Part shown: positions 1,411 to 32,121 of the stretch, one piece after another | How the letters are laid out: every line of letters starts with the position of its first letter | Numbering within the stretch: the stretch's first letter is position 1 | Virus record (IMG/VR): IMGVR_UViG_3300035684_000007 | Coordinates: 1 to 41,546 of that record | DNA: 41,546 nucleotides | DNA from: a virus | Direction: 5' to 3' (one strand) | Position numbers and translations under genes: made by a program | Notes under the pieces: generated by a model | Databases searched by the model: none | What the model was told of the DNA's origin: nothing | The model's input: the letters and a program-made list of their open reading frames with translations, nothing else

Positions 1411-3066
1411 ATGTTTGATCGGAAAGCAGCCCAACGAAGACTCGACGCCCTCCGAATGGAGGCCCAAAGCTGGCAACCCCAGTGGAAGGACCTCTCTCGC
1501 TTTGTCCGCCCAACCCGCGGGTTCTTTGGCGATACGCCGAACTCGGGGCGCGCTCCGGACTACAAGGCCCTGATCGATGGCACCTCGACTCGTGCTGCCC
1601 GGATCTTGGGCGCCGGAATGAGCTCAGGCTTCACCTCCCGGTCCCGGCCGTGGTTCAAGCTGATGCTTCCGGATACGGATCTCTCAAACTATCAACCCGT
1701 TCGCGAGTGGCTGGATCTCGTGCAAAGCCGAATGATGATGGTCTTTGCGAAGTCCAATACCTATGGCGTTTTGCACTCGATCTATGAAGAGATCGGTGCT
1801 TTCGCCACCGCTGCAAGCCTGGTCCTCGAGGACTACGACCAGGTCATCCGTGGCCGCAATTTCACGATCGGAGAGTACTACCTCGGTACTGGATCCGATG
1901 GTCGGGTGAATACTTTTGGCCGGGATTCCTGGTTTACGATCGGCCAACTCGTTCAGGAGTTCGGGATCAACAACGTGAGTGAGCAAGCCCGAGCTCAGTT
2001 CCGAAGCGGGGAAGTGGACCAGTGGGTGAAGGTGTGTCACCTGATCGAGCCCAATCCAGACCGCGATCCCGACAAGCGCGACAATCAGAATATGCCCTTC
2101 CGATCCTTGTACTGGGAGGAGGCTTCAAGTCAGGATGAGTTCCTGAAGCGCGCAGGCTACGAGGAGTTTCCGGTTCTCGCGCCACGCTGGGATCTTACGA
2201 CGACTGCTGATTGCTACGGCAAGGGTCCAGGCTGGGACGCCTTGGGTGATATTCGCATGCTCCAGAAGCTTCAGCGCGACAAGCTGATTGCGCTCGATAA
2301 GCTCGCGGATCCCCCGGTCCAGGCTGATACGAGCGTCCAGGGCGAGGTGAATACTTTGCCTGGTGGTGTAACAAGATCGAATAACAATACAGGTGGAATC
2401 CGCCCTGCGTACCTGGTGAATCCGGATCTGATGGCGATTGAGAATTCAATCCGCGCCACACAGTTTGCCATCGATAAGACGTTCTACACTGATCTCTTCC
2501 TCATGCTGGCGAACACGGACCGCTCCAATATGACGGCAAAAGAAGTCGCCGTCCGGCACGAAGAAAAGCTCCTCATGCTGGGACCCGTGGTTGAGCGCCT
2601 CGAGGGCGAGCTTGCCGACCCCCTGATTGATCGGACCTATGGCATCATGACCCGAAACGGTCTGATCCCTGAGGCTCCTCCCGAACTCGACGGCATGGAT
2701 CTCAAGGTCGAGTACATCTCGATCTTGGCCCAGGCCCAGAAGCTGATTGGCGTCTCCTCGATGGAGAAGTCGGCAGCCTTCATTGGCAACCTGGCTGGAG
2801 CCAAGCCCGAGGTCCTTGATGTCTATGACTTCGATCAGATGGCCATCGAGTACGGCGAAGTTCACGGTCTTCCCCCACGGATCATCCGCGGCAAGGAGAA
2901 GATCGAGGCGATTCGTAAACAGCGCGAGCAGGCTCAGGCTGCCGCTCAACAGCAGCAAAATGCCATGGCCATGGTTCAAGGTGCAAAGGTCCTCTCCGAC
3001 ACCCAAGTGGGTGGTTCGAGCGCTCTTGACGCTCTTCTCGGTACGACTGGAGCGATCACGCCATGA
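1411..3066 (+). CDS. Portal (head-to-tail connector) protein
   Basis: The 551-aa ORF lies after terL and before the scaffold and capsid genes. Its N-terminal pattern (W..W.DLSRFVRP...IDGT..RAARILGAGMSSGFTSRSRPWFKL) is typical of podovirus connector proteins. Confidence 0.85.
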   Translation: MFDRKAAQRRLDALRMEAQSWQPQWKDLSRFVRPTRGFFGDTPNSGRAPDYKALIDGTSTRAARILGAGMSSGFTSRSRPWFKLMLPDTDLSNYQPVREWLDLVQSRMMMVFAKSNTYGVLHSIYEEIGAFATAASLVLEDYDQVIRGRNFTIGEYYLGTGSDGRVNTFGRDSWFTIGQLVQEFGINNVSEQARAQFRSGEVDQWVKVCHLIEPNPDRDPDKRDNQNMPFRSLYWEEASSQDEFLKRAGYEEFPVLAPRWDLTTTADCYGKGPGWDALGDIRMLQKLQRDKLIALDKLADPPVQADTSVQGEVNTLPGGVTRSNNNTGGIRPAYLVNPDLMAIENSIRATQFAIDKTFYTDLFLMLANTDRSNMTAKEVAVRHEEKLLMLGPVVERLEGELADPLIDRTYGIMTRNGLIPEAPPELDGMDLKVEYISILAQAQKLIGVSSMEKSAAFIGNLAGAKPEVLDVYDFDQMAIEYGEVHGLPPRIIRGKEKIEAIRKQREQAQAAAQQQQNAMAMVQGAKVLSDTQVGGSSALDALLGTTGAITP

Positions 3067-3392
3067 ACTACTTTATGGACCCCGAAGCCGCAGACCGGGA
3101 GAAAGCACGCCGAGAAGAGGCCCATAAGCGGCTGGTTGAGCGCGAACGCGATGACCTCAAATTCGTTCTCTCCTGGCCGGAGGGAAGACGCCTGATCTGG
3201 AGGATCCTCAGTGAGGCTGGCGTCTTTCGTAGCTCCTTTACCGGAGGAGGCAAACGGACGTTCTTCAACGAAGGTAAACGAGACCTCGGTCTCATGATTT
3301 TGATCGACCTCATGGCAACGGATCCTGAGGTCTTTGCAAGGATGCAGCACGAAGCGGCAGCCGAATCCAAGAAAGAGGAAACACGGAAATGA
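3063..3392 (+). CDS. Bbp19-like small phage protein
   Basis: The start overlaps the portal stop (ATGA). The motif DDLKFVLSWPEGRRLIWRILSEAGVF...FNEGKRDLGLMILIDL resembles the Bbp19-like domain found after BPP-1-type portals (recalled from memory). Confidence 0.55.
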   Translation: MNYFMDPEAADREKARREEAHKRLVERERDDLKFVLSWPEGRRLIWRILSEAGVFRSSFTGGGKRTFFNEGKRDLGLMILIDLMATDPEVFARMQHEAAAESKKEETRK

Positions 3393-10176: not shown

Positions 10177-11985
10177 ATGCCAAGAGTTCCAGTATACGAC
10201 AGGCAGGCCCAGGTCAAAACGACCGAAGTCGGGACACGGGTCATCAGTAAGCCCCAGCCCATGGGGACCGAAATGGCGGAAGCCGCGGGCCGAGCAGGTG
10301 CCGCCCTGATGAACACAGGCAATGTGCTTGCCCAGCATATGGCCGAGCGCCAGAAGATCGAAGATGAACGCCAAGTCATGGAGCGTGACACGGCCGCCAG
10401 AACCGAGCTTCAAGACCGTCTTTACAAGCAAGATGTCGACGAGAATGGGAGGCCAGTAGGCTTCCTGAATCGCCAGAAGAACCATGCTACCGGATTAACA
10501 CCCGAGTTTGATCAGACCTTCCGCGAGCTGAAGCAGAAGTACGTGGGCTCGCTTGCGAACGATACTCAGAAGCAGCTCTTCTCGAAGATGATCGACAACC
10601 ACTATGAAGGGCTTCGCGGCACAGTAATCCGGCACGAGGCGGAGCAGGGGAGAGAGCTCTTCAAGGAGACGGTTTCCTCCGCAGTCAAGCAGCGCATCTC
10701 CGAGGCCGCGACCATCTCGGATCCAAGCCTCCTTCTGAAAGCGATCGACGACGCCCAGGGGCTTCAGACCGGGGGCCTCAAGCGAATGGGGTCGCAGGAC
10801 GATGTCGTGGGCGCTCACAACCAGGTCCTCGCAGGCGAGCTTGTGAAGTCCTCGTTCGGACCACTCCTGTCTCAAGACTACCGGAAGGCCGAGGCCGTCT
10901 TGAACGCCGCACGCTCCCGGGTCCCGGCCGATGTTGCAGCCGAGATGGACAAGGCGCTCGAAGGTCGGAAGCTTGAGGACGAGAGGGTTTCCACCTGGAA
11001 GCAGGTCGCAGGCCACCGCCTGGCCGACGGAACGCCTGACACGAACCGGATGCAGAACTCCATCTTTGCGCGTGAGGACCTCACGACCGAAAAGAAAGAG
11101 AAGCTCTGGGATTATGTGAAGGTTCGGGCCGCCGAAGAGAACCAGCAGAGAAAACAGCAGGAGGTGGCCACAGACCACTCCTTCAAGAACGAAGTCTTCG
11201 CCGCGAAGAAGGGGGGAGCGAACCTTGATGCTGCCCTAAAGCTTGTCTCCAAGTACGGCGGCGACGAGGTGGCTCAACAAGAGCGCACCGAGATCGTCAA
11301 AGCGCTCTACACCACGAAGACGATCACTGATCCGGTCACCTACAACAAGCTTTGGGAAGGTGTTCAGGAAGGCAAAATGGGGAAAACCGAGCTCAACGTC
11401 GCTTTCGCCCAAGGCAAGATCTCCTCGTCTGATTTCATGGAGCTCACGAAGACTGGCTACAACGCTCTCCATAAGGAAGATGAGTTCTACAAAAAAGAGA
11501 TCATCGACCGCGTGAAGGACCTCGCGCAAACCGAGTACGGATCGAACGAGAAGAAGCGGAATGGTTTCCTCTATTCGGTCCTCATCAGCTCCCGAGGCAA
11601 GACACCTGAGGAGACCTGGAAGATCGCGCAGGACTTGACCAAGAATGACCCGAGCACGGGCGCGTTCTCCTTCACCCAAGATGCCCAGTGGGAGACGAAT
11701 GTGAAGCGTTCGGACGCTCAGAATCTCGTGTGGGGGAAGCTCCACCAGGACATCGGCCAGGACCAGGTGAAGGCTATCGGCCAAAGCGCACTCATGACTG
11801 GGAAGAAGACCTGGGGAGTCTCGGACGTCGAAGAGTTTGCAACTGCCTTGGGCGGCTACGAAAAGCTCAAGAAGGGTACGCCCGAGAACACCGCGATCGA
11901 CTCCCTCGTTCGCAAAAACAAGCAAGTCACCCCTGAGGCCGTCAAAGCGGTTCTCAAAGTACACCCGGACGGAGTCTGGAAATGA
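10177..11985 (+). CDS. Internal virion protein C (T7 gp15-position)
   Basis: The 602-aa, largely helical and charged ORF lies between the gp14-like and gp16-like genes. The assignment rests on synteny only. Confidence 0.5.
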   Translation: MPRVPVYDRQAQVKTTEVGTRVISKPQPMGTEMAEAAGRAGAALMNTGNVLAQHMAERQKIEDERQVMERDTAARTELQDRLYKQDVDENGRPVGFLNRQKNHATGLTPEFDQTFRELKQKYVGSLANDTQKQLFSKMIDNHYEGLRGTVIRHEAEQGRELFKETVSSAVKQRISEAATISDPSLLLKAIDDAQGLQTGGLKRMGSQDDVVGAHNQVLAGELVKSSFGPLLSQDYRKAEAVLNAARSRVPADVAAEMDKALEGRKLEDERVSTWKQVAGHRLADGTPDTNRMQNSIFAREDLTTEKKEKLWDYVKVRAAEENQQRKQQEVATDHSFKNEVFAAKKGGANLDAALKLVSKYGGDEVAQQERTEIVKALYTTKTITDPVTYNKLWEGVQEGKMGKTELNVAFAQGKISSSDFMELTKTGYNALHKEDEFYKKEIIDRVKDLAQTEYGSNEKKRNGFLYSVLISSRGKTPEETWKIAQDLTKNDPSTGAFSFTQDAQWETNVKRSDAQNLVWGKLHQDIGQDQVKAIGQSALMTGKKTWGVSDVEEFATALGGYEKLKKGTPENTAIDSLVRKNKQVTPEAVKAVLKVHPDGVWK

Positions 11986-14900
11986 GCGACATATTGAATC
12001 AGCTTCCTGATGCGGTCTTCCCAGCTGAGGGCCAGCTTGCGCAGGCCCAAGTTCAGGATCCAGGCCCGTCTCTCGACAGCTTACCTGACCTGGAGAGCCC
12101 GTTGAGCCAGGCCTACCGCGAGTCCGCCAAGATGGATCCCGCTCGTGCGGCCCAGGTGATGGACCTCGCCAAGAAGATCAACGAGCCTGAAGCTTTCGTT
12201 GACCGCAACTTGCCTGAGCTCCAGAAGGCGGTCTCTGCCCCGAGCTCCGCCTTTTGGCAGGAATATGAGCGTGAGCATCCGGAAGCTGCGAAGTTTCTGA
12301 TGGATCGCCGGAACATGGTGGTCGCGCAGGACGACTTCGACAACTTGGGGAAGCTCGAGAGCTACATCAAGCAGATGAGCACAGGTCTGCGGAAGGGGAA
12401 CCTTGAGGCCCGCCAAGCCGAGCTTTGGGCCGAACGATTGGCTGAAACCCGGAAGTCAGGAGTACTCAGTTCCAAGTTTGATGCTGAGCTCCAGTCTTTG
12501 AGTAAGGAGCTTGAGCCCTTCGCGATGCTCGATGAGAAAGTCGGGAAGGGCTTCCACCCTCTCTATCAGTTCAGCGCCCAGGTCCCTAATATGACCCGCT
12601 CGCTGTTCAAGTTTGGAGCAGGCGAAAGCCTTTCGGACTTGCCGGGGCCTGCACTTGTACGCGGCGCTCAAGGTGCTGCCGCGGGGGCCGCCGCAGGCGC
12701 TGCCGTAGGGGCCGCTACGGGTTCAATCGCCCTTGCTCCAGGGGTGGCCATCGGAGCCGGTGCTCTCGCTTCCACGGGGGCTGCAAACGGGGGGAGAGTG
12801 GGTGCCGTCGCGGGCTTGGCCGAGTACGCCTACCAGCTCGAGGCCGGCAACGCTTTCCGGGAATATTCCGCAGCGCGCGATGTGAGTGGTGCGTCAATTA
12901 ATCCGCAGGTTGCTGCGGATGCTGCCCATACGGTCGGCATGGTCAACGCGGCGCTTGAAACCGCAGGCGACCTGCTCCTCATGAAGGTCCTGAAACCTGT
13001 CGGCAAGCTGGCGGGCGGCATGGCGAGTGACGCTGCTGTCAAAGCACTCACGAAGATCAAGGTCCCCGGCGCTGAGAAGATCGCGTCCGCCATCGCGGCC
13101 CGGCCTGAGCACTTCGCTGGCATGACCCTGGGCAAGGCGGTCCGTGAAGCCGGCAAGCTCTGGGCGCTTGGGATGGTAGGGGAGATTTCGACCGAATTCG
13201 CCCAGGAGGTCTCAACCGGCATAGGAGCTGAGTCCGCCAAGGCGAGCTCAGGCCAGACCTTTGCCGATGGCAAGGGCATGGCTCAGATTCTGGACGACGC
13301 TACCGGCGTCATCTACCCCACCTTCCAGGCAATGCTTATCCCAAGCGGATTGGGCGGCGGCGCGCGCGTCGCCCTCTCGGTCCGCGAGATCAAGCGCGCG
13401 GAGCAGACTAAGGAGATCTATACCGCCCTGGGCGCCTCCGCCGAGGCCTCGAAGGTCCGCGGGCGCCTGCCGGAAGTCCATCGCCAGTTCGTCGAACAAG
13501 TCACGAAGGGCTCTCCGGTTGAGAACATCTTCATCCCGGCCCAAGCCTTTGAGACCTACTTCCAGTCCAAAAAGCTCGATCCCAAGGAAGCAGCAGCCGA
13601 GCTCGGGGTGGGGGAGGACTTTGAGACCGCGCGGGAGACCGGGGGTGACCTGAAAATTCCCCTTTCGGTGTTCACCGAGAAGGTCGCCGGCACCGAGCAC
13701 CACCACGGCCTGGCCGATGATGTGAAGTTCTCCCAGGAAACCCTATCGGTGAACGAAGCCAAGCAAACCAAGGCGGATGCCGAAGCCCGTGTTGAGGCGG
13801 AGTTCGCCAAGCTCGTTGAAGCTGCTCCCGAGCACGAGAAGCAGCAGCAGGAGTACGACACGCTCAAGGCCCGTGTCAGGAGCGAGATCGAGTCGGCTAA
13901 GCCACGGGAGATGTTGCCCGACGACGAGAAGGAGTACCATCAGCAGCTCGACGCCCAGGCTGAGCTCATTGCCAAGATCACTGCGATCGAAGCCTTTCGT
14001 CGGTCTCAGAATGGGGATCAGGTGACGGCCACCCAGCTCTACGATGCCCAGCGAATCCAATGGCAGAACGAGGGCGGTGCCCTCAGCTCGAGCCTGCCCT
14101 CACGGACCCTTTTCCAGAAAAGGCAGGATGGCCTCAGCTTCGTGAAGAATGACGAGGTCGACCAAACTGAGCACGAGCTTCCCATGTCAGTTGCAGTCAC
14201 GACCAACGATCAGGTTCAACCCATCGACATCAAGGCGCCAAACCCGGCTCTGGAGAAGGTCCTGACCGCACGAACGAAGCGCGGACGCTACCTCAATGAG
14301 CACACCAAGATCTCCATTACCGTCAACGAAGATTCAATCGGTAAAGTCTTGAGCCAGGGCGCGAAGTTCATCAAACGAAAGAGCGATACGGCTTTCCGTG
14401 AGCACCTTCAAACCCTCCAGTCGATTGATGCGCTAGTGAAGAATGCGGTCTATCTGACGACGAAGTCAGAGAAGAAAGGCCGCACGACTGAGCAGTGGCT
14501 CTACTTTTTCGCCCCTTTGAAAGAAGGCAATGTCGAGTCACTCGTTAAGTTGCAGGTAAAGAAAGAAGGGGAGAAATACACTCTCCACAATATCGCGAGA
14601 GTAAGAGAATCCGGCAGAGGTAGGGCTAAAACCCTGGTCGGACAAGAAGCCAACTCCATCCCTGCCGGGCCCTTAGATTTACTCGAGTTTTCGTCCCGCG
14701 TCAAGGCTGCCCGCGAGACCTATACCTTCTTCCAGGATGACCAGGATGATGCCTATGGCCGGATCCAATTCGGCCCTAATGGCCCAATTGTCACCCTATT
14801 CCGGAAGGCGCATGCTTCAACCCCTGTTCATGAGTTTGCCCATGCGTACCTGAAGGACGTATTCGACTACGTCCGTTCGCATCCAGAGAAGCTCTCGGCC

Positions 14901-17900
14901 GACTACCAGGCTCACTGGAAGCTCATCGTCGACTACCTGGGGATTGAGGAAGGCCAGACGGCCCTCACTGAGGAGCAACAGGAGCGGTTCGCCCACGGCT
15001 TTGACGACTACCTTCAAAAGGGGGAGGCCCCTTCCGAAGCGCTCAAGCAGGTCTTCACCCGGTTCAGGCGCTGGCTCACTGCAATCTACCGTAGGGTCAA
15101 GCAGGAGAACCTCCCAATCGATCCGCGCGCCAAGGCGATCTTCGACCGCATGCTTGCGACCGAAGACGAGATCCAGGCCGCTGAGGCTTCAGCCGGACGT
15201 GCAAAGCTTCAGGACAAGGTCGAAGGGCTTACTGAGGCAGAGGTGAAGCGCCTCTCGAAGCTCCAGGAGCGGGCCCACGAAGAGGCCATCTCCCTCCTGA
15301 TGAGGCGCCAGCTTGAGGAGCTCAAGGAGGAGCGGAAGGAGTTCCTGGTCCTGAAGCGTACTGAAGCTGAGAAAGAAGCCAAGCAAAAGACCGCAGCGCT
15401 TCCGATCTACAAGATTCAGGACGAGCTAAAGAGAAGGATGAAGACGAGTCAGAGTGCTCGCTCCATTGCGCAAGCCTACTCCAAAGGGAAGCTCACCGAG
15501 GAGCGCCAGGTCCAGTTCGAGCTCCATGCCGAGCTCTCCGGATACTCCTCGGGTGATCACCTGGCAAAAGCCATCCTGGACTCCGAGCGCTTCAGTGACG
15601 TGGTTGCTCAACGCGTCCGAGAAGAGATGGCAACCTATGCCGATCTCAAGGACACGAGCGCCCTTCGGGAAGAGGCTCTAAAGGCCATCCACAACGAACG
15701 CTCCTATGAGCTCATGGCACTTGAAAGCGAGATCCTGGAAAGCCTCGTGAAGGGCGAGGAGACCCGTGCTGAAGCCAAAGCGCGTCGGGTGGAGGAAGCC
15801 AAGATCGAGGCTGCGGCGATTAAGGCCAGGGCCAAGGAGCTTATGTGGAAGCTCAATGTCCGGGGGGCGACCGCCCATGGACCGCTCATCACGAGCGAGC
15901 GTCGCGCGGCCGAAGGGGCTGCCAAGGCTCTCGCCAAGAAGGACTTTGAGCGGGCCGCGGCGCTCAAGCGCCAGCAGATGCTCAACCACGCGCTCGCCCA
16001 AGAGAGCCTCAAGATCAAGGCCAAGGTCGAGAAGTGGACCGACTACCTGAAGGATCTCAGGTCTCGCCACTTGGAGGCCTTCAAGAAGGAAGAGCACTTC
16101 TACCAGGCGGCCGAGATTCTCTCCCACTTGGGTATGGGTCGGAACGATTATGATCCGACTCGCAGGACCGAATCCTTAAGGCAGTGGGCCGAACGGATGG
16201 AGGCGCAGACCAACATCCTAAACATCCCAGACTGGGTCTTCGAAGAGGGCAAAATTCGGGATCACAAGGAGCTCACCGTTTCTGAGCTTCAGGACGTGAT
16301 CAACACGCTCAAGAACATTATGAAGGTTGCCAACTTCGAAGACCGCGCCTTGGTCATCGCTGAGGGTGCCACCATGGAGGATATTAAGACGCGCCTTCGG
16401 ATGGAGTTTGCTCTCTCCCAGCGTGGCAAGGAGCCTCGAGCCCAGCGCATCGGAGCGGCAACTCCTGTGGACCGCATCAAGCGCATGGGTTCAAAGTACC
16501 TGCTTTCACTCATCCGGGTGCAGAACTTGCTCAGGGGCATGCAGGGGTTCCGTGAAAACGGGGCCTTTACCGAGGTGCTCGAAAAGCCTGTGGATGCGGC
16601 TGCCGACCACGAGAGCAAGCTCATGGTGTGGGCTACCGAGGGCCTCAAGAAGGCCTTTAGCATCTACTCCGCGAAGGAGCAGCAAGAGCTCCTGAATCGT
16701 CAGGTCTACCATCCGGAACTGGGGAGCTCAGTCCCCAGGATGACCCTGATCATGATGGCCCTGAACCTCGGGAACGAGGACAACAAGACGAAGCTCTTTG
16801 GGACAAAGCCTGTCGGCGTGCCTGAGGAGATGGAGTGGAACGACATTGTGGGCATGGGGCTCCTCCAAAGGGGTCTCACTGAGAAGGACTGGGAGTTTGT
16901 TCAGTCCGTCTGGGATCTCATCGGGGAGCGCTGGGAGGACATTTCCTCCCTCCATCGCCGCATGACGGGATTTGCGCCAGGGAAGGTCGCAGCCGTGCCC
17001 TTCAACGTGAGGCTTTCGGACGGCAAGGTCCTCACCCTCAAGGGCGGCTACTTCCCGCTTAAGCAGGATCCTCGTGGGAACCGAAAGGCCAACCTTCGCG
17101 AGGCGCTCGATACGCCGCTTTACACGGAGCAGAACCCTGGCTGGAAGGCAGTGACCAAGACGGGCCATACCAAGGAACGAACGGGAGCCCAATACGCAGT
17201 ATCCCTGGATCACTCGATCATCTTCCGCCACCTCCGCGACGTGATTCATGACATCGCCTTTCGCGAGGTCGTCACCGATCTCAGGCGCCTAGTCGCAAGC
17301 GAAGAGGTCGCAGCCATGGTCGTCCAAGCTCATGGCGAAGACGGCTATCAGATCCTGAACGAATGGGTGAACTCGGTTGCAGTCGGCCAGGCTTCGAACG
17401 TGACTGACGTCTTTGGCCAGGCCATTGCGGAACTCAGGAAGAGGACCACTGCCGCCATCCTGACCTGGAGGATCTCGAATATCGTCCAAAACTTCGCAAA
17501 CGTCGCTCTCTATGCCAACGCCGCTGAAGGCTTTGGGCAAAAAGAGGTCTTCTCGGCGATGCTGGGCCGCGGCCTTCCGTACTGGGCGAACTTCTTTGTT
17601 AACCAGGCCGAACACCAGGTCATGAAGAACTTCGTCTTTGAGCGCTCAGCCTTCATGCGCGACAAGCATTCGAACCCGGATTTCTCATTTGCCGAGCTCC
17701 AGGGGAGCGTCTTCCGGGAGCGCGGGCCCATGCGTGAGATTCTGGCCGAGAAGCTTGGCCAAGACTCCAAGGTCGTCGAGGCGCTTGATCTTGCTGCCGA
17801 CAAACATGAAGCTATCCAGGAGTTTGGAAAGGGACTTGCGGCGGGAACGGACGAAGCCACCTCCATCCCAATCTGGGTTCATGCCTACAATCTCGCGCTC

Positions 17901-18596
17901 GATCGAAACTTCGAGCATGAGGAAGCCGTCCAGTACGCAGACTCTGTCATCAAGAACTCCATTGGATCGGGGCGAAAGTATGACGCCCCGTCCATCCAGC
18001 GGGGAGGGGAGACTGCGAAGCTCGTCTCCATGTTCATGACTTTCCTCAATGCCGAGTTCAACCGCTGGTATCTGGAGGCCGGCAAGGCAACCGTTGGGAG
18101 CCGAGGCGCAATCCGTGCTGCTGGAAAGCTTGCCATGAGCCCCAGGTTCCTTGGGTTCCTCGCAAGCCGCATCATCATCTTCAACGTGGCGTCTCTTCTG
18201 ATCTCTGGGAAGGGTCCGGACGAAGGAGAAGACGAACTCAAGTGGTGGCTCAAGCAGGCGGTCTTTTACCCGATTAGCTTCTTTCCGGGCGTTCGGGATG
18301 TGGCTGATGTGGCGCTCGATCAGCTCTTTGGTCTCAGGAGCTTTGGGTATCGTCCATCTGCAGCCGGCGCAGGCATCAATGCCGCAGTCGATTTCGGAAA
18401 GAGCGCCACGAAGTGGAGTGAGGGGAGTGAGGAGTTCTCGCGTGTTGCCGAGTCCTTCACGAAGCTCATGTCCTTTGCAGCCCCCTACCCAGATCAATTC
18501 AACGCTTGGCTCTGGAACGCCCACGACTATGTCACTGATGGGATGAAGCCAGCGCCTCAGGATCTCTATCGTCGCCGCCCTAAGAAAGAGCGGTAA
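11982..18596 (+). CDS. Giant internal virion / DNA-ejection protein (T7 gp16-position) with polyvalent-protein-like insert
   Basis: A single 6.6-kb ORF (2204 aa) starts with an ATGA overlap. It has G/A-rich hydrophobic segments near residues 225-290, an HEFAH zincin motif at 14829-14843 and long E/K/A/R coiled-coil tracts. It sits upstream of the tail fibre. Confidence 0.8.
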   Translation: MSDILNQLPDAVFPAEGQLAQAQVQDPGPSLDSLPDLESPLSQAYRESAKMDPARAAQVMDLAKKINEPEAFVDRNLPELQKAVSAPSSAFWQEYEREHPEAAKFLMDRRNMVVAQDDFDNLGKLESYIKQMSTGLRKGNLEARQAELWAERLAETRKSGVLSSKFDAELQSLSKELEPFAMLDEKVGKGFHPLYQFSAQVPNMTRSLFKFGAGESLSDLPGPALVRGAQGAAAGAAAGAAVGAATGSIALAPGVAIGAGALASTGAANGGRVGAVAGLAEYAYQLEAGNAFREYSAARDVSGASINPQVAADAAHTVGMVNAALETAGDLLLMKVLKPVGKLAGGMASDAAVKALTKIKVPGAEKIASAIAARPEHFAGMTLGKAVREAGKLWALGMVGEISTEFAQEVSTGIGAESAKASSGQTFADGKGMAQILDDATGVIYPTFQAMLIPSGLGGGARVALSVREIKRAEQTKEIYTALGASAEASKVRGRLPEVHRQFVEQVTKGSPVENIFIPAQAFETYFQSKKLDPKEAAAELGVGEDFETARETGGDLKIPLSVFTEKVAGTEHHHGLADDVKFSQETLSVNEAKQTKADAEARVEAEFAKLVEAAPEHEKQQQEYDTLKARVRSEIESAKPREMLPDDEKEYHQQLDAQAELIAKITAIEAFRRSQNGDQVTATQLYDAQRIQWQNEGGALSSSLPSRTLFQKRQDGLSFVKNDEVDQTEHELPMSVAVTTNDQVQPIDIKAPNPALEKVLTARTKRGRYLNEHTKISITVNEDSIGKVLSQGAKFIKRKSDTAFREHLQTLQSIDALVKNAVYLTTKSEKKGRTTEQWLYFFAPLKEGNVESLVKLQVKKEGEKYTLHNIARVRESGRGRAKTLVGQEANSIPAGPLDLLEFSSRVKAARETYTFFQDDQDDAYGRIQFGPNGPIVTLFRKAHASTPVHEFAHAYLKDVFDYVRSHPEKLSADYQAHWKLIVDYLGIEEGQTALTEEQQERFAHGFDDYLQKGEAPSEALKQVFTRFRRWLTAIYRRVKQENLPIDPRAKAIFDRMLATEDEIQAAEASAGRAKLQDKVEGLTEAEVKRLSKLQERAHEEAISLLMRRQLEELKEERKEFLVLKRTEAEKEAKQKTAALPIYKIQDELKRRMKTSQSARSIAQAYSKGKLTEERQVQFELHAELSGYSSGDHLAKAILDSERFSDVVAQRVREEMATYADLKDTSALREEALKAIHNERSYELMALESEILESLVKGEETRAEAKARRVEEAKIEAAAIKARAKELMWKLNVRGATAHGPLITSERRAAEGAAKALAKKDFERAAALKRQQMLNHALAQESLKIKAKVEKWTDYLKDLRSRHLEAFKKEEHFYQAAEILSHLGMGRNDYDPTRRTESLRQWAERMEAQTNILNIPDWVFEEGKIRDHKELTVSELQDVINTLKNIMKVANFEDRALVIAEGATMEDIKTRLRMEFALSQRGKEPRAQRIGAATPVDRIKRMGSKYLLSLIRVQNLLRGMQGFRENGAFTEVLEKPVDAAADHESKLMVWATEGLKKAFSIYSAKEQQELLNRQVYHPELGSSVPRMTLIMMALNLGNEDNKTKLFGTKPVGVPEEMEWNDIVGMGLLQRGLTEKDWEFVQSVWDLIGERWEDISSLHRRMTGFAPGKVAAVPFNVRLSDGKVLTLKGGYFPLKQDPRGNRKANLREALDTPLYTEQNPGWKAVTKTGHTKERTGAQYAVSLDHSIIFRHLRDVIHDIAFREVVTDLRRLVASEEVAAMVVQAHGEDGYQILNEWVNSVAVGQASNVTDVFGQAIAELRKRTTAAILTWRISNIVQNFANVALYANAAEGFGQKEVFSAMLGRGLPYWANFFVNQAEHQVMKNFVFERSAFMRDKHSNPDFSFAELQGSVFRERGPMREILAEKLGQDSKVVEALDLAADKHEAIQEFGKGLAAGTDEATSIPIWVHAYNLALDRNFEHEEAVQYADSVIKNSIGSGRKYDAPSIQRGGETAKLVSMFMTFLNAEFNRWYLEAGKATVGSRGAIRAAGKLAMSPRFLGFLASRIIIFNVASLLISGKGPDEGEDELKWWLKQAVFYPISFFPGVRDVADVALDQLFGLRSFGYRPSAAGAGINAAVDFGKSATKWSEGSEEFSRVAESFTKLMSFAAPYPDQFNAWLWNAHDYVTDGMKPAPQDLYRRRPKKER

Positions 18597-23972: not shown

Positions 23973-24722
23973 TCATTCCAATGGCGTTGCCAGCATGAGG
24001 TGAATGTTCCAAAGGGAGAACTCTTCGGAATCCGAATAACCATTGGCCATGTTCTCCCGATTGAATGCTGAGAGTTTTTCGTAGATCGAATACAAGAGAG
24101 CGTCGATTTGCATGATCTGGGAAGGAGTGTACCGATCAATAGCCAGGTAACAAAATCGTTTGGCTCGGTATGCGGGATCTGAGATTTTCTCGAGGTATCG
24201 ATCGGCCGAGAGTGTGGCAAGTTTATGATGCGTCTGGAGCGTTCTCTTGACGTCGCTCTTGTTGTAGCTCCGATTAATGTGTTTCTGAATGTACTGGTTT
24301 CCGCGTTTGGCCAATACCCCTACGTGGTAAAGCTCGTCGAGCGCGATTCGAATTGCTCGCGCGGGATAGCCCTGCTTCGAAAAAGTCTCAACTGTGATTT
24401 CTTTGGTCGCAGCGGAATACGCCAGCAGATGGATCTCAGACTTGTAGACTGTAGCTTCGACTTCGGGTGGCATGGTCACAAGCTCCGTCATTGAAGCCTC
24501 CGCCGCAGCGATGATCTGCGCTGGCTTCACAGCGAGGCGCTGAGCAAGCCTCAGGAGCTGCTCAACTGTCAGGCGGGATTTTCCATTAAGGAGTCGTGAG
24601 GCCTGAGGTTGATTCACTCCGAGAATTTCACCAACTTCCTTTCGTGAGAGGCCTTCCTCCTTGATCCTCCGATTTAGTTCAGCCAGGAGTGCATCGTAGT
24701 AGTTTGACAGATAATCCTTCAT
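23973..24722 (-). CDS. XRE-type HTH protein with DUF4423/TIGR02147-like C-terminal domain
   Basis: The HTH reads LSRKEVGEILGVNQPQASRLLNGKSRLTVEQLLRLAQRL. The roughly 170-aa C-terminal region has the layout I recall for TIGR02147. The start is ambiguous, with a GTG at 24773 also possible. Confidence 0.6.
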   Translation of the reverse strand: MKDYLSNYYDALLAELNRRIKEEGLSRKEVGEILGVNQPQASRLLNGKSRLTVEQLLRLAQRLAVKPAQIIAAAEASMTELVTMPPEVEATVYKSEIHLLAYSAATKEITVETFSKQGYPARAIRIALDELYHVGVLAKRGNQYIQKHINRSYNKSDVKRTLQTHHKLATLSADRYLEKISDPAYRAKRFCYLAIDRYTPSQIMQIDALLYSIYEKLSAFNRENMANGYSDSEEFSLWNIHLMLATPLE

Positions 24723-24833
24723 GCCGAGATAACATAGCATGCATCTGATGTATGGGTAGTGCGATATAATCACTTGACCGCTGAACGGGACATAAGTAAA
24801 CCCTGTCGAATTCAGGGGGGACTTATTTTGAAG

Positions 24834-25013
24834 ATGCTTTCTTTTTGTTTGGTGTTTCTATACTCCGCGTCTTCCTTCGCTGGAGGCGAGGGGGGTGGAG
24901 GTCCCTATCAGGCACGGCTTCGGATCAAAATCGGAGAAAAGCTGGTCTTGATTGGTGGCGATGTAAATGGACCGCAAGTCCTAGATCGTAAGAATAAGCA
25001 GATCGGAAAATAG
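24834..25013 (+). CDS. Small secreted peptide (putative)
   Basis: An internal ATG of tracked ORF 24759..25013 gives MLSFCLVFLYSASSFA/GGEGGGG, which looks like a signal peptide. The product would be 59 aa. Confidence 0.3.
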   Translation: MLSFCLVFLYSASSFAGGEGGGGPYQARLRIKIGEKLVLIGGDVNGPQVLDRKNKQIGK

Positions 25014-25150
25014 AAAAGGCCCACCGCTGGGATCTTGCTGCGCGAACAGCAAGTCAGGGTGAGCCCACACGCCCGAAAGCGTGCGCTTTTCCTATCTCAG
25101 TGTGAGCCTCACATGCAAGTGGTCAAGGGCTACACTGGCCCACATTCGAA

Positions 25151-25387
25151 ATGGATTTGGCATGGGGGAATGCTGACGTGTGTAAAGGAATGATCAAAGA
25201 GCGCTGCGAAGCGTGCAGGGCAGCGGAGCGAATTCGCGCGCTGGATGAAATGGCTAATGACTTCCTCGCAAAGTACCACGCGCTTCGAGAGCGCGAGGCG
25301 CGAGAAGCGGAGCGAACTCCGTCACGCCCCGGCAGGGCAAAGCTCTACGTTCTGCCGAGCAGAGGCGGAAGCTTCAATGCTTCGTGA
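25151..25387 (+). CDS. Hypothetical protein
   Basis: The 78-aa ORF has no clear ribosome-binding site and no recognised family. Confidence 0.3.
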   Translation: MDLAWGNADVCKGMIKERCEACRAAERIRALDEMANDFLAKYHALREREAREAERTPSRPGRAKLYVLPSRGGSFNAS

Positions 25388-25452
25388 GCTTTGTAAATGC
25401 ACTGCGATCGCGCGCTTTTAAGCAATAAGGCTCAAGGTTCGTTACTGGGAAA

Positions 25453-25743
25453 TCACTCTGGGGAAACCAAGAGTGCTGTCACACGCTGGATTTCCTGCAG
25501 AAGGCGCGCTTCGATTGCAGGAGTCTCAATTCCCGTGAAAGTAATCTCAGCAAGGACGAAGCTCCGCCTGGCTAGACACATCAGGAGTTCGTTGAAGAAA
25601 CTCTGGGTAACCACTTCGATGCCTGAAAAGTCAAACGCGAGCTCGTTCCCGGAGACATCCTCGCGGAGGCTGGCGACGATTTCCTGGGCATGGGCCCGGC
25701 TGGCCAGACACTTCTCTTCGTTTCTCAAGGAGATCGTCGTCAT
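25453..25743 (-). CDS. STAS-like domain protein (DUF4325-like)
   Basis: The 96-aa ORF has the core ELAFDFSGIEVVTQSFFNELL, characteristic of the DUF4325 STAS-like family (recalled). It lies 23 nt downstream of the antitoxin gene on the same strand. Confidence 0.55.
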   Translation of the reverse strand: MTTISLRNEEKCLASRAHAQEIVASLREDVSGNELAFDFSGIEVVTQSFFNELLMCLARRSFVLAEITFTGIETPAIEARLLQEIQRVTALLVSPE

Positions 25744-25766
25744 CGAATCGGTGCCCGCATTATCGC

Positions 25767-26267
25767 TCAGGCTGCGGATTCCCAGCCGTGTCCATTGAGC
25801 TTCAGGTCAATTCGCTTGAGTTCTTTCCCGGAATCATTGGTGATCAGGTCGTGAAGATCGTAGTGCCGGTCAGGGGTTTTGTTTTGAACCAAAGCGCGTA
25901 GCAGTAGGTCATAGGCTTGGGTTGCCTTAGTTCTTCCATTTTCTATGCGGGACTGGTGCTCCGAAGTCATACCCACAAGGCGGGCATAGGTCGCGCCAGA
26001 GTACCCCATATGCGACCGCAGGAAGCGAACCTCTTTGCCATCGAGGAGGCCTTTCTTTTGGATGAGCTCGGCAGCGATCTGAGCGTGAAGCTGCTCAAGA
26101 TCACCATAACCAACATAGTCTTCGCCACATTTGTCGCAGCGAGTGTACTCGACACCATGAAGAGTGACGTTCTCGAGCCCGCAGTCGGTGTATTTGTAAT
26201 TAATTCTCTTTTGCTTCAGGGGTTTCTTGTTGTCGCAGTTCACGCAATACATGGTCATTTTCTCCAT
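25767..26267 (-). CDS. MqsA-type antitoxin (YgiT zinc finger + XRE HTH)
   Basis: It has CVNC...CDKCGEDY zinc-ribbon pairs followed by LDGKEVRFLRSHMGYSGATYARLVGMTSEHQSRIENG. The start may instead be the ATG at 26258 (ATGA overlap with the toxin stop) or the one at 26252. Confidence 0.8.
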   Translation of the reverse strand: MEKMTMYCVNCDNKKPLKQKRINYKYTDCGLENVTLHGVEYTRCDKCGEDYVGYGDLEQLHAQIAAELIQKKGLLDGKEVRFLRSHMGYSGATYARLVGMTSEHQSRIENGRTKATQAYDLLLRALVQNKTPDRHYDLHDLITNDSGKELKRIDLKLNGHGWESAA

Positions 26268-26563
26268 CCTGAAACGACTGCTAGAGAGGTCTGTGTGTCA
26301 AAGGCCACACAGATTCCAATCAAGTTCGTCTCCACCGTGTAACGCCAGGATCCATCCTTGAAGTCCGGCATGTTCTTGATGTGAGCTGAGGACGATTTCA
26401 AAACGTTCAGCGCATCCACGGTCGTGAGATCATCCTTCGCTAGTTCCTTTCTCGCGTGCTTACTGAAGCGGACGTTTGAAGGGTAGCGACTCATGATCTC
26501 GGTGACAAGCTTCCTTGCTTGCGTCTTATCTAGACGAGTTGATCTATAGTCAAATGTTGACAT
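26255..26563 (-). CDS. DUF4258-like toxin (RelE/BrnT-superfamily-like)
   Basis: The 102-aa ORF shows VRFSKHARKELAKDDLTTVDALNVLKSS...GSWRYTVETN...VVSGWRK, the DUF4258 layout. It sits upstream of and overlaps the antitoxin gene. Confidence 0.6.
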   Translation of the reverse strand: MSTFDYRSTRLDKTQARKLVTEIMSRYPSNVRFSKHARKELAKDDLTTVDALNVLKSSSAHIKNMPDFKDGSWRYTVETNLIGICVAFDTQTSLAVVSGWRK

Positions 26564-26697
26564 AATATCAAGTTCCTACAAGTCGAAAATTCAGGGTGAG
26601 GGAAGCGAGCCACCGGCATAGCACGAAATCGGCTTGGAGGTTTTCTGTTGTCTGGAAATCGTTGGGATTTTCAGCGCGGCAAATGCGGCCGAATCAT

Positions 26698-27204
26698 CTA
26701 CCCGCGGTTTCCCTGTCCGGCCGCGCCGGCCGCGGGATCCACCGCAAAAGTCTTGAGCACCGCCGCAACGGTGCGAAGCTTGTCCTCAGGGATCCGGGCG
26801 ACCAGGTCGAGGACCTCTCGGCGGGCCGGGGTGAGTGCGGGAGAGGAAGCGGGCTGGACGTAGTGGCGCCCCTCGAGTTCTTGGTCGGGGCCGAAGAGGC
26901 TTGGATCCCCAGGCTTTCTGAGCCTTTTGATTTCGGCCAAGATATCGGCGAGCGTGGGTTCCGGCTTCGTGATTGGGACAGGCGGAGCGGCGTCCGGGCG
27001 AATTAAATCCCAGGGGTCTCGTTCCAGTACCAGCGCAATTCGGTCGAGCGTGGATAACGAGATGTCGCCGGTCGCATCCTCGGCGATGATTCGGTAGATC
27101 GCTTGAGGCTTCATGCCGACTTTGCTGGCAAGTTCGGCAAGTGCTCCTCGCACATCTCGCATGGCGCGGAGCTTATTCCTCAAAACATCCGCCGACTTGA
27201 TCAT
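26698..27204 (-). CDS. CI-like prophage repressor (HTH, no recognisable S24 peptidase domain)
   Basis: It has the N-terminal HTH ELASKVGMKPQAIYRIIAED..GDISLSTLDRIALVL. It is divergent from a Cro-like gene across a 59-bp palindrome-rich spacer. Confidence 0.65.
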   Translation of the reverse strand: MIKSADVLRNKLRAMRDVRGALAELASKVGMKPQAIYRIIAEDATGDISLSTLDRIALVLERDPWDLIRPDAAPPVPITKPEPTLADILAEIKRLRKPGDPSLFGPDQELEGRHYVQPASSPALTPARREVLDLVARIPEDKLRTVAAVLKTFAVDPAAGAAGQGNRG

Positions 27205-27263: not shown

Positions 27264-27473
27264 ATGAGCATCACCGAGATAAAGGCCGGAATGCGGCGTC
27301 TTAAACTCAGCGAAAGACACATTGCCTCCAAGGCGGGGATCGACCGCCGTACGGTAATGCGATTTCTTGAGACCGGTCAGACTCGAAGTATTGCCACCGA
27401 AGAGGCCATTTTTAAGGCCTACCGTGAATTGGTTCGAGAACGCTCAGTTACCAAGGAACCCGTAGCGGTTTAA
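27264..27473 (+). CDS. Cro-like HTH regulator
   Basis: The 69-aa ORF has the HTH LSERHIASKAGIDRRTVMRFLETG and is the first gene of the rightward operon. Confidence 0.6.
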   Translation: MSITEIKAGMRRLKLSERHIASKAGIDRRTVMRFLETGQTRSIATEEAIFKAYRELVRERSVTKEPVAV

Positions 27474-27554: not shown

Positions 27555-28025
27555 ATGGGTACGACAAAAGACATCGGAAACTGGGGTGAACAAGTCGCTA
27601 GAGAGCACCTCGAGGCTCTTGGTTATAGAGTACTTTGGCAGGCGCGATCTGGGGGCCCTGACCTTGTCTGTGAAAAGGATGGTCAGGTTATCGCGGCCGA
27701 AGTGAAGACGGCTCGGGATGCGGGGCAATGTTGGAAGACCGCACCTGTGCATCCACTGCGGCGGCTTGACGATATGGTCGCTATCGTAATGCCGAATCGT
27801 AAGGTGCATGTGTGCAGCATGGCTGAGCATTTGGCGGCTGCTGATAGATCGACGAGGCGTTCTGTAAGCCAACTCGTCAGAGAGTATTGCCCAGAGGCAT
27901 TCACCCAAGCCGGTCTCAGAGAAAGTCGCAACCTTCGTGCACGAAGACGTGCCGGGGCGGACGGAAAGTATGCGCGAGAAGAGATCGTCCAGATCCTTCG
28001 TGAGCGCGGAGAACGTATCGCCTAA
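27555..28025 (+). CDS. PD-(D/E)xK nuclease (YraN/Hjc-like)
   Basis: GNWGEQVAREHLEALGYRVLW....GGPDLVCEKDGQVIAAEVKT contains the GE...D...E-x-K core typical of YraN/UPF0102 and archaeal Hjc-type nucleases. Confidence 0.6.
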   Translation: MGTTKDIGNWGEQVAREHLEALGYRVLWQARSGGPDLVCEKDGQVIAAEVKTARDAGQCWKTAPVHPLRRLDDMVAIVMPNRKVHVCSMAEHLAAADRSTRRSVSQLVREYCPEAFTQAGLRESRNLRARRRAGADGKYAREEIVQILRERGERIA

Positions 28026-28696: not shown

Positions 28697-28966
28697 ATGA
28701 GACTTCAAGCTGAAGTGAATCTTGACCCAGGGAGGGCTCAAGTGGAGACCGCGAAAGGCACGGTTCAGAAGTTACTCTATACGACGGAGGAGATCTCGGA
28801 GGCTACCGGAGTACCAGTTGAAACTTATGTCTGGTGGCGGCAGATAAACGAAGGTCCACCCTACGTGAAGCTGGGTCGAAACGTCCGTTATTCGCTCAAG
28901 GCGGTCATGCAGTACATCGAGCGCAAGACGCATGATCCTGCGCGAGGTATGAGAAGGAAAAAATGA
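28697..28966 (+). CDS. xis: Excisionase / AlpA-MerR-type HTH DNA-binding protein
   Basis: It shows LLYTTEEISEATGVPVETYVWWRQINEGPPYVKLGRNVRYSLKAVMQYIE, the excisionase-family HTH layout. Its stop overlaps the integrase start. Confidence 0.6.
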   Translation: MRLQAEVNLDPGRAQVETAKGTVQKLLYTTEEISEATGVPVETYVWWRQINEGPPYVKLGRNVRYSLKAVMQYIERKTHDPARGMRRKK

Positions 28967-30192
28967 ACTCTAAGAAGAGAAGGCGCTCCTCGAGGCGGCA
29001 AAGTGAGAACCGCTCCAAGGATTACATCCACCTCTTCAAGTATCCGAAGCGTTCGCGCTTCTGGGTTTATCGCCGCTTCTCTGGGGAGAAGGGCGAGGAG
29101 TTCTACTATTCCACTGGCGAGGAAACAAGCGAGAGGCTTGCTGACGACATCGGAGGCAAGGCCTACCATGAGTGGCTGGGCTTGGAGGCTAAGCCTGAGG
29201 CGGGCGATGGGACTGAGGTAGGAATTCCGACCTTCGGGCCGTTTGCTCAGGCTTACTACAACGATAAGGAAAAGCGGCCGGAACACGACTTCTCGCGGAA
29301 ATCAAAACTCAATTCCAGACGAGCAACGGAGCAACTGATTGAGGCCTTCGGTCACCTCACGATCGACCAGGTCACCGCTGAACGAGTAAAGAGCTGGTGC
29401 AACGAGCGCTTTGCCGAAAAGCCTCAGAAGTTCTTCAACCGGCTCAAAGAGCTTCGCGAGATCTTAGGTGCTGCTCACAGGGCAGGGCATATCCGCGTGT
29501 TGCCGAAGATAGCGAATCCTGACAAGCCTGCCGAGGAAGGGCAATGGTTTGAGGATGAGATTGTCGAACGGCTGCTTGTAGTGGCGAGTCCCACGCTAAA
29601 TCTGCTGATCGATACCATGTGGCGGCAGGGTCCCCGTCCGGCTGAGGCCCTTCAATACCGCTTTTCCATGATCCGCTGGGATGAGGGAGCGCACGGACAG
29701 ATCCATATCCCCGGAGAGATCACGAAGACCCGCAGGGGCCGAGTTATCCCACTCAACTCCGTGATTAGTGCGAGGTGGCAAGCGATCCAGGATCACTCGG
29801 AGTGCGACTGGATTTTCGAGTCACCGAACTTCCCAGGAGAGCGGGTGACGTCCTACCGGGATAGCTGGGAGCGGACCCGGGACCGGGCTATTTCGATCCT
29901 CCGGGCCGAAGTGGATATCCTTAGGGCCTACGGTCGCGGCCTGGTCGAGCAAGGGCTTATGGACGCCGAGACGCGCGCGAATGCGCGCAAGCGTGAGTCA
30001 AAGCTTTCTTCCTTCATCCGGAAGCTTGAGAACGGGGTCCTCTATGACCTCCGTGCCACTTTTGTGACGAACAAAGCCAAGAAGGGCGACCCTATTCTGA
30101 TGGTCGCGAAGTACATCGATTCGTCGATCAAAATGATCGAGCCTTTCTATGCCAAGGTTGAAGCTCACATGCTGGAGGACATCGCCGAATGA
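28963..30192 (+). CDS. int: Tyrosine integrase
   Basis: The 409-aa ORF has box I (RPAEALQYRFSMI), a later LYDLRATFVTN and a C-terminal KYIDSSIKMIEPFYAK with the presumed catalytic Tyr. It is adjacent to attP. Confidence 0.85.
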   Translation: MNSKKRRRSSRRQSENRSKDYIHLFKYPKRSRFWVYRRFSGEKGEEFYYSTGEETSERLADDIGGKAYHEWLGLEAKPEAGDGTEVGIPTFGPFAQAYYNDKEKRPEHDFSRKSKLNSRRATEQLIEAFGHLTIDQVTAERVKSWCNERFAEKPQKFFNRLKELREILGAAHRAGHIRVLPKIANPDKPAEEGQWFEDEIVERLLVVASPTLNLLIDTMWRQGPRPAEALQYRFSMIRWDEGAHGQIHIPGEITKTRRGRVIPLNSVISARWQAIQDHSECDWIFESPNFPGERVTSYRDSWERTRDRAISILRAEVDILRAYGRGLVEQGLMDAETRANARKRESKLSSFIRKLENGVLYDLRATFVTNKAKKGDPILMVAKYIDSSIKMIEPFYAKVEAHMLEDIAE

Positions 30193-31165: not shown

Positions 31166-31338
31166 GCGCGCCGAAAAACACAAAGCCGCCCTGACGTTGT
31201 GTGGCGCTCGGGAAAGTGAGCTGACGTCAGGACGGCTGAAAGCAACATCGCATGGATGCAAAAAATCAGGAAGTGCCAATTGAGGAGCGTCTCCCGGTGT
31301 GGGGTGGAGGCGATCCATGGAAAAGGGGAAGTGGCAAC

Positions 31339-32121
31339 ATGGCTGACAAACTCAGCAAGCAGGTCTGGATCAAGGTGACAAACTGGAGGCAGTACAATCC
31401 CAGGACGGATGTTGAGAAAACGAGGTGGTTTCGAATGGAAAACACCCTCCTCGAGAGCGCAAAATTTGCCTCATTTTCGCTCGCAGAAATCGTCACAACC
31501 ATCTTTATTTTCTCACAATGCTCACAGGCAAATTCTGAAACTGTCCTCGTGAACTTGGAGGTGCTTCGGACGAAACGAGGCATTTCCATCAAACAAGCTT
31601 GGGGTGCGATTCACAAGCTTGCTCACAAAATGATGAATGTTATCGAGCTTGTGGATGATCCGTTCAAGGCGGGTGACGGTGAATCGGCGTTACGTGGACA
31701 ACACGCGGGACGTGACGCCAGTGAAGCATCCGACGATCGTGAGGCGTCGCATCGGCGTACCCCTACGTTACGTAACGATACGGAACGAGACGATACGAAA
31801 CAGAAAGACAAGAAAGTAAAGCCAGTAGTCGTGGTCCCCTCCGACAAGCATGTGCTGGTTAATAAGAGCGGGAAAGCAAGTCTTGGGGATAACTCCACAA
31901 GCGATGTGGATAACTTCCATGCCCAGCTGGATAAACCCATAGATCACACAGATCCTCCCGATGTCCTTGTGGATAACTCCGCTCAGGTCGGCGCGGATCC
32001 GCCTCCTGGGCCTATTACGCAGGAAGAAGCTCTAGCTCAGGAGCGACTGATCAAGAAGCGTCGCGACCTCGGGCTCAACGATGACGGCACCGAGAAGTGC
32101 ACTTTCCTGAGGATCGTATGA
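31339..32121 (+). CDS. Putative replication initiator / replisome-organiser-like protein
   Basis: I start it at the ATG at 31339, which has an AGGGGAAG ribosome-binding site. It has a winged-helix-like N-terminus (WIKVTNWRQYNP....WFRMENTLLES.KF), a charged low-complexity linker containing DNA repeats, and a C-terminal domain. The functional call is weak. Confidence 0.4.
   Translation: MADKLSKQVWIKVTNWRQYNPRTDVEKTRWFRMENTLLESAKFASFSLAEIVTTIFIFSQCSQANSETVLVNLEVLRTKRGISIKQAWGAIHKLAHKMMNVIELVDDPFKAGDGESALRGQHAGRDASEASDDREASHRRTPTLRNDTERDDTKQKDKKVKPVVVVPSDKHVLVNKSGKASLGDNSTSDVDNFHAQLDKPIDHTDPPDVLVDNSAQVGADPPPGPITQEEALAQERLIKKRRDLGLNDDGTEKCTFLRIV

Follow-up and report, generated by a model that had tools for sequence, protein, structure and literature searches.

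Layout of the locus

We examined a compact three-gene locus in the IMG/VR virus record IMGVR_UViG_3300035684_000007, whose whole length of 41,546 nucleotides (nt) is referred to here as the window. An earlier reading of the same DNA, the original prediction, had proposed that a DUF4258 toxin, an MqsA-type antitoxin, and a STAS-like DUF4325 protein form a three-component toxin-antitoxin (TA) or defense system. Our analysis recognizes in the first two genes a bona fide, conserved, bicistronic type II TA module of a kind that has already been catalogued, and, judged by sequence comparison, the third gene is not a conserved component of it.

The three genes lie head to tail on the minus strand, as the original prediction had described, and all of them, with the 23-nt gap, are seen in the list of open reading frames (ORFs). 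Gene 1 (positions 26255 to 26563) encodes a putative BECR-fold RNase toxin of 102 amino acids (aa), assigned to the DUF4258 family from the ORF list, Pfam, and homologues. Gene 2 (25767 to 26267) encodes an MqsA/YgiT-family antitoxin, 166 aa long as the listed ORF and assigned from Pfam, NCBIfam, and an alignment. Gene 3 (25453 to 25743) encodes a stand-alone STAS-like DUF4325 protein of 96 aa, assigned from Pfam, and is separated from gene 2 by a spacer of 23 nt on the same strand (25744 to 25766), measured directly on the sequence. Since all three have homologues elsewhere, we judge them to be real genes and not chance ORFs.

The original prediction had also stated that the toxin stop codon overlaps the antitoxin start. 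This holds if gene 2 starts at the ATG at 26258, which gives an ATGA overlap, and gives way to a gap if it starts at the ATG at 26252, which lies 2 nt past the toxin stop and yields a protein of 161 aa. We favor the latter as the likely true start, because 29 aligned homologues begin with M-[KY]-C-x-x-C and a GGAG motif lies 9 nt upstream. Genes 1 and 2 are tightly coupled whichever start applies.

An AGGA motif is found about 10 nt ahead of the gene 1 ATG, and no Shine-Dalgarno motif for gene 3 was found when the 23-nt spacer was read. The 134-nt intergenic region 5' of gene 1 (26564 to 26697, minus strand) is a possible TA promoter/operator. A promoter and terminator scan gave no terminator-like site between the three genes and no sigma-70-like site on the minus strand of the region upstream of gene 1; its single promoter-like site was on the wrong strand, and fewer sites were found than in shuffled sequence. 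No operator-like palindrome longer than 9 nt was present 5' of gene 1. The two TA genes have GC contents of 0.48 and 0.51 and gene 3 has one of 0.55, compared with 0.57 for the phage.

Genes 1 and 2 as a DUF4258-MqsA pair

Against the Pfam DUF4258 model (PF14076), gene 1 scored 21 bits (E value of 4e-4), which is below the gathering score of 25. It is 50 to 68% identical to the toxins that precede homologues of gene 2, and four of the five aligned toxins, gene 1 included, matched DUF4258 at an E value of 0.01 or lower, the best at 1.8e-9. The weak assignment is rescued by the homologous toxins that match the family, and we uphold the original proposal as probable. Among Pfam models gene 1 matches DUF4258 only and not MqsR (PF15723), and searches of PDB sequences with gene 1 gave no match. 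The family has been placed in a colicin-like BECR branch (Ntox49) and not with RelE/ParE (2026 preprint, 10.64898/2026.08.28.747851).

The MqsA-type assignment of gene 2 is borne out by two models above their cut-offs, Pfam MqsA_antitoxin PF15731 (32.4 bits; cut-off, 30) and NCBIfam TIGR03830 (71.2 bits; cut-off, 61.8), and by the predicted architecture of two zinc-ribbon CxxC pairs (C8/C11 and C44/C47) followed by an XRE helix-turn-helix (HTH) domain. An AlphaFold2 model built on 30 homologues reached a predicted local distance difference test score (pLDDT) of 89, and its best Foldseek match in the PDB was Escherichia coli MqsA (3gn5_A; E value of 4e-3, probability of 0.99).

Past the region covered by the MqsA models, gene 2 has a C-terminal tail. 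The original prediction had described it as an extra tail of roughly 45 aa; the tail is there, but it measures about 35 to 37 aa and is a family-wide feature. In the alignment it carries the motif P-DRDYDLHD...GW, with invariant R, Y, H, D, and W, and is found in the family with or without gene 3. The AlphaFold2 model predicts that it folds into a helix and a β-hairpin. We considered the tail as a chaperone-addiction element or as a docking element for gene 3 and rejected both, given its conservation without gene 3 and its predicted fold. In PADLOC, genes 1 and 3 had no match, and the matches of gene 2 amounted to noise.

DUF4258-MqsA modules, including 17 DUF4258-MqsA fusions, have been catalogued by Gerdes (2025; PMC11980606), where the toxin family is termed "undescribed in the literature."

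Conservation of the pair and of the third gene

A metagenome scan gave at least 525 relatives of gene 2, from which 80 loci were retained, and 5 loci were added from IMG/VR; many of the relatives are about 163 aa long. Of the 70 loci that could be evaluated, 60 have a toxin of the gene 1 family immediately before the antitoxin, and so do all four context loci with DNA (L001 to L004). Genes 1 and 2 therefore stand as the toxin-first type II TA pair that had been predicted.

The third gene was counted in the 59 metagenomic or viral TA loci with at least 400 nt of downstream sequence. None of them has a codirectional gene of the gene 3 family (DUF4325/STAS), no DUF4325 or STAS domain was found by Pfam in 34 ORFs downstream of TA pairs, and no DUF4325 gene follows the pair in the four context loci. 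Beyond the window, the triad was found on two contigs only (L012 and L013), and because both are 100% identical to the window at the DNA level, the triad amounts to one independent instance. Non-conservation of gene 3 had been set beforehand as the outcome that speaks against its role as a third TA component, and that claim falls with these counts; a new three-part architecture is not supported. Scans of IMG/VR using gene 2, gene 3, or the candidate repressor (see below) as single proteins gave no match.

One of the homologous TA loci, L073, contains a distantly related DUF4325 gene (2904 to 3287, minus strand; Pfam E value of 4e-14) that converges on the pair at the contig end, where its own upstream partner is cut off. 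This looks like a coincidence of neighborhood.

Gene 3 and its family

Gene 3 matches Pfam DUF4325 (PF14213) with 29 bits (cut-off, 23) and carries the core motif DFSGIEVVTQSFFNELL, which confirms the original family assignment. A word-indexed homologue search with it returned only gene 3 itself, and an exhaustive HMMER search revealed a small family of stand-alone proteins of 82 to 107 aa. The top two HMMER hits, P0037 (3041 aa; E value of 1e-34) and P0038 (1337 aa; E value of 1e-22), were rejected: each matched gene 3 through 13 to 18 repeated short stretches, and P0038, the one of the two that was inspected, is a translated tandem repeat in which a chance similarity is multiplied. A narrower search using the gene 3 family alignment found one genome locus (L008, see below) and no IMG/VR locus, and tblastn against cultured phages gave no match for gene 3, its relative P0043, or the L073 DUF4325 protein.

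The AlphaFold2 model of gene 3 (pLDDT of 86) has a β-α-β-α-β-α layout. Foldseek found nothing below an E value of 0.25; the top template modeling score was 0.55, for the STAS domain of SLC26A7, and the weak matches also include MlaB, stressosome proteins, and the STAS protein 4xs5. Likewise, the best matches of a gene 3 profile among PDB sequences are STAS proteins, weak at E values of 0.09 to 0.27. The description "STAS-like" is consistent with this evidence from predicted structure and profiles, not proven by it.

The ORF is full length, with N and C termini correct for the family. It keeps 11 of 14 highly conserved positions, the lowest number among 22 family members, and two of its changes, S14A and S51N, affect residues that do not vary in any of the other 21 sequences; a further change, G15S, falls within the SGRS motif. 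The seven positions without any variation in the full family alignment are all kept, including Q47-S48. In the model the family-invariant S48 is at the N terminus of helix 2. Anti-sigma factor antagonists are phosphorylated at the N terminus of helix 2, and we infer from the model that S48 would be positionally equivalent to that site.

The GHKL-DUF4325 cassette

The relatives of gene 3 have a different usual context. In eight of nine independent contexts, including three cultured phages, a gene for a GHKL ATPase or kinase-like protein of about 275 to 300 aa lies directly upstream of the DUF4325 gene and overlaps it, so that the two are translationally coupled. In five of these contexts (L005, L006/7, L009-11, L014, and L015-18), the DUF4325 gene overlaps the stop codon of a gene for a 272- to 281-aa protein. 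The partner carries the GHKL motifs FTELA[DN]N..YH, D.G.G, and G.RG.GL, and its matches to HATPase_c range from weak to threshold level. L006 and L015 also have a small XRE HTH gene (63 to 72 aa) ahead of the ATPase-DUF4325 pair. The cultured phages, whose DUF4325 proteins are more distant, are Bacteroides phage BF1-TP2, Clostridioides phage ES-S-0173-01, and Burkholderia phage vB_E188. The BF1-TP2 pair (gp43/gp42) is annotated as "ATP-binding protein" and "DUF4325 domain-containing protein." In vB_E188, the pair (gp10/gp09) lies beside an integrase gene and a BrnTA pair, so that an intact GHKL-DUF4325 cassette adjoins a TA pair. Francisella phage KIRK has a 293-aa hypothetical protein and a DUF4325 protein directly after CI (PMC7924643), which by description alone may be another example.

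Overall, the cassette comprises a gene for a GHKL ATPase of about 272 to 308 aa and an overlapping DUF4325 gene of about 90 to 119 aa, with a small XRE HTH gene added at part of the loci. The ATPase has an N-terminal STAS-like region and matches residues ~36 to 280, the N-terminal region, of the PADLOC DrmA model PDLC02567, with E values down to 4e-18. Examples are found at L105 (2572 to 3815), L106 (2264 to 3477), and L107 (2090 to 3297), and further ones are in L005 to L018. The cassette sits in mobile islands beside AbiEii, integrases, PIN_4, and DUF3800. The pair is not a system in PADLOC-DB v2.0.0 (2023), and a search of plasmids for the GHKL ATPase gave no match.

The one exception among the nine contexts is L008/L019 (2257 to 4288) in the Bdellovibrionales metagenome-assembled genome contig CBDANC010000013.1, where the DUF4325 gene follows PDC-M19A/B, a PADLOC candidate defense pair matched at E values of 1e-105 and 1e-106.

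Searching all six frames of the window with profiles of the GHKL partner gave best E values of 0.35 (first profile) and 6 (refined profile). A 266-aa HTH protein (described below) and an ORF of 274 to 289 aa (31252 to 32121) were considered as a hidden ATPase partner and rejected, as neither matched the GHKL profiles. The original proposal that a STAS domain points to partner switching thus fits the relatives of gene 3, which are paired with a GHKL ATPase, but the partner is absent from the window.

A mini-ORF, MRAPIR* (window positions 25740 to 25769, minus strand), follows the gene 2 stop codon in the frame of gene 2, and its TGA forms an ATGA overlap with the start codon of gene 3. It ends much like the C termini of GHKL partners (VPIL*, VPIQ*, VPIV*, and EPIL*).

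Interpretation

We think it quite probable that the locus holds independent modules and no tripartite system, a judgment that takes in both the remnant and the trans-acting variants for gene 3 discussed below. The lysogeny arm of this temperate, T7-like podophage would carry two unrelated accessory ("moron") units next to each other. If mqsRA and higBA are a guide, the DUF4258 BECR-fold toxin of the first unit would be a putative RNase, the antitoxin would bind and neutralize it and probably repress the operon, and the pair would stabilize the prophage or abort superinfection. The second unit would be gene 3, the small half of a GHKL-DUF4325 cassette that resembles the partner-switching pair SpoIIAB/SpoIIAA. 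Because the phage has no GHKL ATPase of the gene 3 family, gene 3 would be an orphan, either left over from a broken cassette or active in trans on a GHKL partner whose gene lies elsewhere. It most probably stands behind the TA pair because accessory genes gather at this point of the genome, and it is probably cotranscribed with the pair merely through its landing position.

Several observations weigh against this reading. The 23-nt gap between genes 2 and 3, without a terminator, implies cotranscription, and a functional link is therefore possible. The state of gene 3, intact, confidently predicted, and with 11 of 14 conserved positions kept in a compact genome, argues for a retained function. 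The TA locus L073 has its convergent, distantly related DUF4325 gene alongside. DUF4325 proteins are not bound to one partner, as the PDC-M19 exception illustrates, and a VapC/PIN (PIN.4) group has been reported to be coupled to DUF4325 genes (PMC5499597); because the partners vary, recruitment to a new toxin is conceivable. A true tripartite system would go one step further: the STAS-like protein would have been recruited to gate the antitoxin or the toxin upon infection, giving prophage-borne abortive infection. The tight same-strand packing and the varied partners (GHKL ATPase, PDC-M19, and PIN.4) favor it, as does the existence of MqsA-based three-part systems such as MqsRAC (PMC9519451), and the substitutions specific to gene 3 could reflect adaptation to a new partner. 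Nevertheless, we consider it very unlikely, in view of the absence of the third gene from all homologous TA and context loci, the single independent instance, the lack of a PADLOC match for gene 3, and the lack of a kinase or phosphatase to drive a partner switch. The antitoxin tail, which is conserved irrespective of gene 3 and, unlike a chaperone-addiction tail, is predicted to fold, points the same way.

With independent modules as the preferred reading, the fate of gene 3 can be seen in more than one way. It would be a nonfunctional leftover if a former XRE-GHKL-DUF4325 cassette had lost its ATPase gene and were decaying. Gene 3 has diverged further than any other family member, has lost two otherwise invariant positions, and lacks a Shine-Dalgarno motif; moreover, MRAPIR*, which overlaps its start and ends like the ATPase C termini, could be what is left of the deleted gene, an argument that hangs on two residues. 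This decay seems unlikely to us when set against the full-length ORF with its family-correct termini, the conserved positions that are kept, and the confidently predicted fold, as dead genes are seldom retained in compact phage genomes. The same intactness, together with the absence of a GHKL partner from the whole window, would suit an orphan antagonist, that is, a STAS decoy whose target in trans is the GHKL ATPase from an XRE-GHKL-DUF4325 cassette in the host or in a rival element. Gene 3 would bind the ATPase or be phosphorylated by it and so disarm or rewire the cassette, as orphan antitoxins do; phage-borne orphan antitoxins are an established counterdefense strategy (PMC11825919, PMC11481870). 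All seven family-invariant positions are kept, Q47-S48 at the start of helix 2 among them, the surroundings of the cassette (AbiEii, integrases, PIN_4, DUF3800, and PDC-M19) are of a mobile or defense type, and the ATPase resembles the N-terminal region of the DrmA model. Yet the cassette is not a PADLOC system and has no demonstrated defense or toxin function, no target can be named without a named host, and neither the IMG/VR scans nor tblastn against cultured phages revealed a further orphan of this kind. S14A, S51N, and G15S in the SGRS motif could abolish ATPase binding, and the missing Shine-Dalgarno motif counts here as well. We regard such a decoy as distinctly unlikely.

Comparison with known systems

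The E. coli mqsRA system consists of the MqsR RNase toxin and the MqsA antitoxin with its zinc-ribbon and HTH domains. Like the locus here, it is a toxin-first operon with a two-domain antitoxin, and MqsA (3gn5) is the best PDB fold match of gene 2. It differs in that its toxin is MqsR (PF15723) and not DUF4258, and in that the antitoxin here has an added C-terminal module. Because the toxin family differs, the locus is, by its sequence families, not mqsRA in the strict sense. The catalogued DUF4258-MqsA modules (PF14076 with PF15731/TIGR03830) share the families, the toxin-first order, and the tight coupling, and the antitoxin subfamily here is distinguished from them by its conserved, predicted folded C-terminal extension of about 35 aa.

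The original prediction had known of no tripartite architecture based on an MqsA-type antitoxin. This overlooked MqsRAC, a toxin-antitoxin-SecB chaperone system (PMC9519451); such toxin-antitoxin-chaperone (TAC) systems are also described elsewhere (bioRxiv 10.1101/2024.02.24.581848). The locus shares with them three codirectional genes, a C-terminally extended MqsA-type antitoxin, and a small third gene, but it does not match MqsRAC, as the third gene there encodes a SecB-like chaperone and here a STAS-like DUF4325 protein. The TAC tail is a chaperone-addiction element that occurs only with the chaperone, whereas the tail here is predicted to be folded and is kept in loci without a third gene. 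Unlike TAC systems, the three-gene arrangement here is not conserved across loci.

Gene 3 belongs to the small-protein half of the GHKL ATPase-DUF4325 cassette, which temperate phages likewise carry in their accessory regions; this phage has neither the ATPase half nor the small XRE regulator. In the SpoIIAA/SpoIIAB and RsbV/RsbW pairs, a STAS anti-sigma factor antagonist is combined with a GHKL serine kinase, and a PP2C phosphatase is usual in the module. Gene 3 shares with them the pairing with GHKL in its relatives and the serine (S48) at the start of helix 2, and its predicted fold may be STAS-like. Its likeness to bona fide STAS proteins in fold and sequence is weak (E values of 0.09 to 0.3), and the window differs in having no kinase, phosphatase, or sigma factor.

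Implications

A conserved triad would have meant a new class of three-component TA or defense system; what the evidence shows instead is an ordinary, experimentally unstudied DUF4258-MqsA pair beside a stray gene. The loci collected here give a clear statistical picture of a widespread DUF4258-MqsA subfamily, whose antitoxins have a conserved C-terminal module with a predicted fold, and this subfamily would be well suited for studying a DUF4258 toxin by experiment for the first time. Of greater interest is the conserved, uncharacterized XRE-GHKL ATPase-DUF4325 cassette defined here, which mobile islands and at least three cultured phages carry. As an orphan, gene 3 would offer a natural experiment on the small STAS-like half acting alone. 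In the event, to which we give only a small chance, that gene 3 is a decoy, the cassette would be a new conflict system of the partner-switch type and gene 3 the first countermeasure against it.

Phage genome setting

The window corresponds to contig JAXMNJ011852523.1 of assembly GCA_034691665.1. Because of the way L012 maps onto it, it is probably a rotated version of a circular assembly and thus, at about 41.5 kb, the entire genome of the phage. Its portal protein shares 43 to 45% identity with those of the T7-like podophages Limnohabitans phage DC33 and Cobetia phage Carin1. The phage is marked as temperate by an integrase gene (28963 to 30192) and an HTH_17 excisionase-like gene (28697 to 28966). 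Upstream of gene 1 on the same minus strand, a gene (26698 to 27204) encodes a 168-aa XRE/Cro-C1-type HTH protein, which the original prediction had called a CI-like repressor. The HTH protein and its position stand, and its matches (HTH_26 with 23 bits, HTH_3, and weak PHROG repressor matches) make it a candidate CI repressor only. Divergent from it on the plus strand is a listed ORF for a 69-aa Cro-like HTH protein (27264 to 27473) with weak HTH and PHROG repressor matches. The placement of the module in the lysogeny arm of a temperate phage is supported.

No tRNA gene was found in the window. The next minus-strand gene downstream of gene 3 (23973 to 24773) encodes a 266-aa XRE HTH protein that matches HTH_3 and HTH_37, each with 36 bits, and PHROG regulator families; it is a second repressor-like gene on the strand of the candidate CI gene, and its C-terminal ~170 aa match no family. 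Between it and gene 3, in a stretch of about 680 nt (24774 to 25452) that otherwise has no assignment, lies a small plus-strand ORF (24759 to 25013) with a signal-peptide-like hydrophobic N terminus (MLSFCLVFLYSASSFAGG...), which the source assembly calls as a gene of 59 aa. Beside the Cro-like gene, a plus-strand ORF of 156 aa (27555 to 28025) has weak, subthreshold matches to UPF0102, Mrr_cat, and PD-(D/E)XK nucleases. Elsewhere in the window, an ORF of 2204 aa extends from 11982 to 18596.

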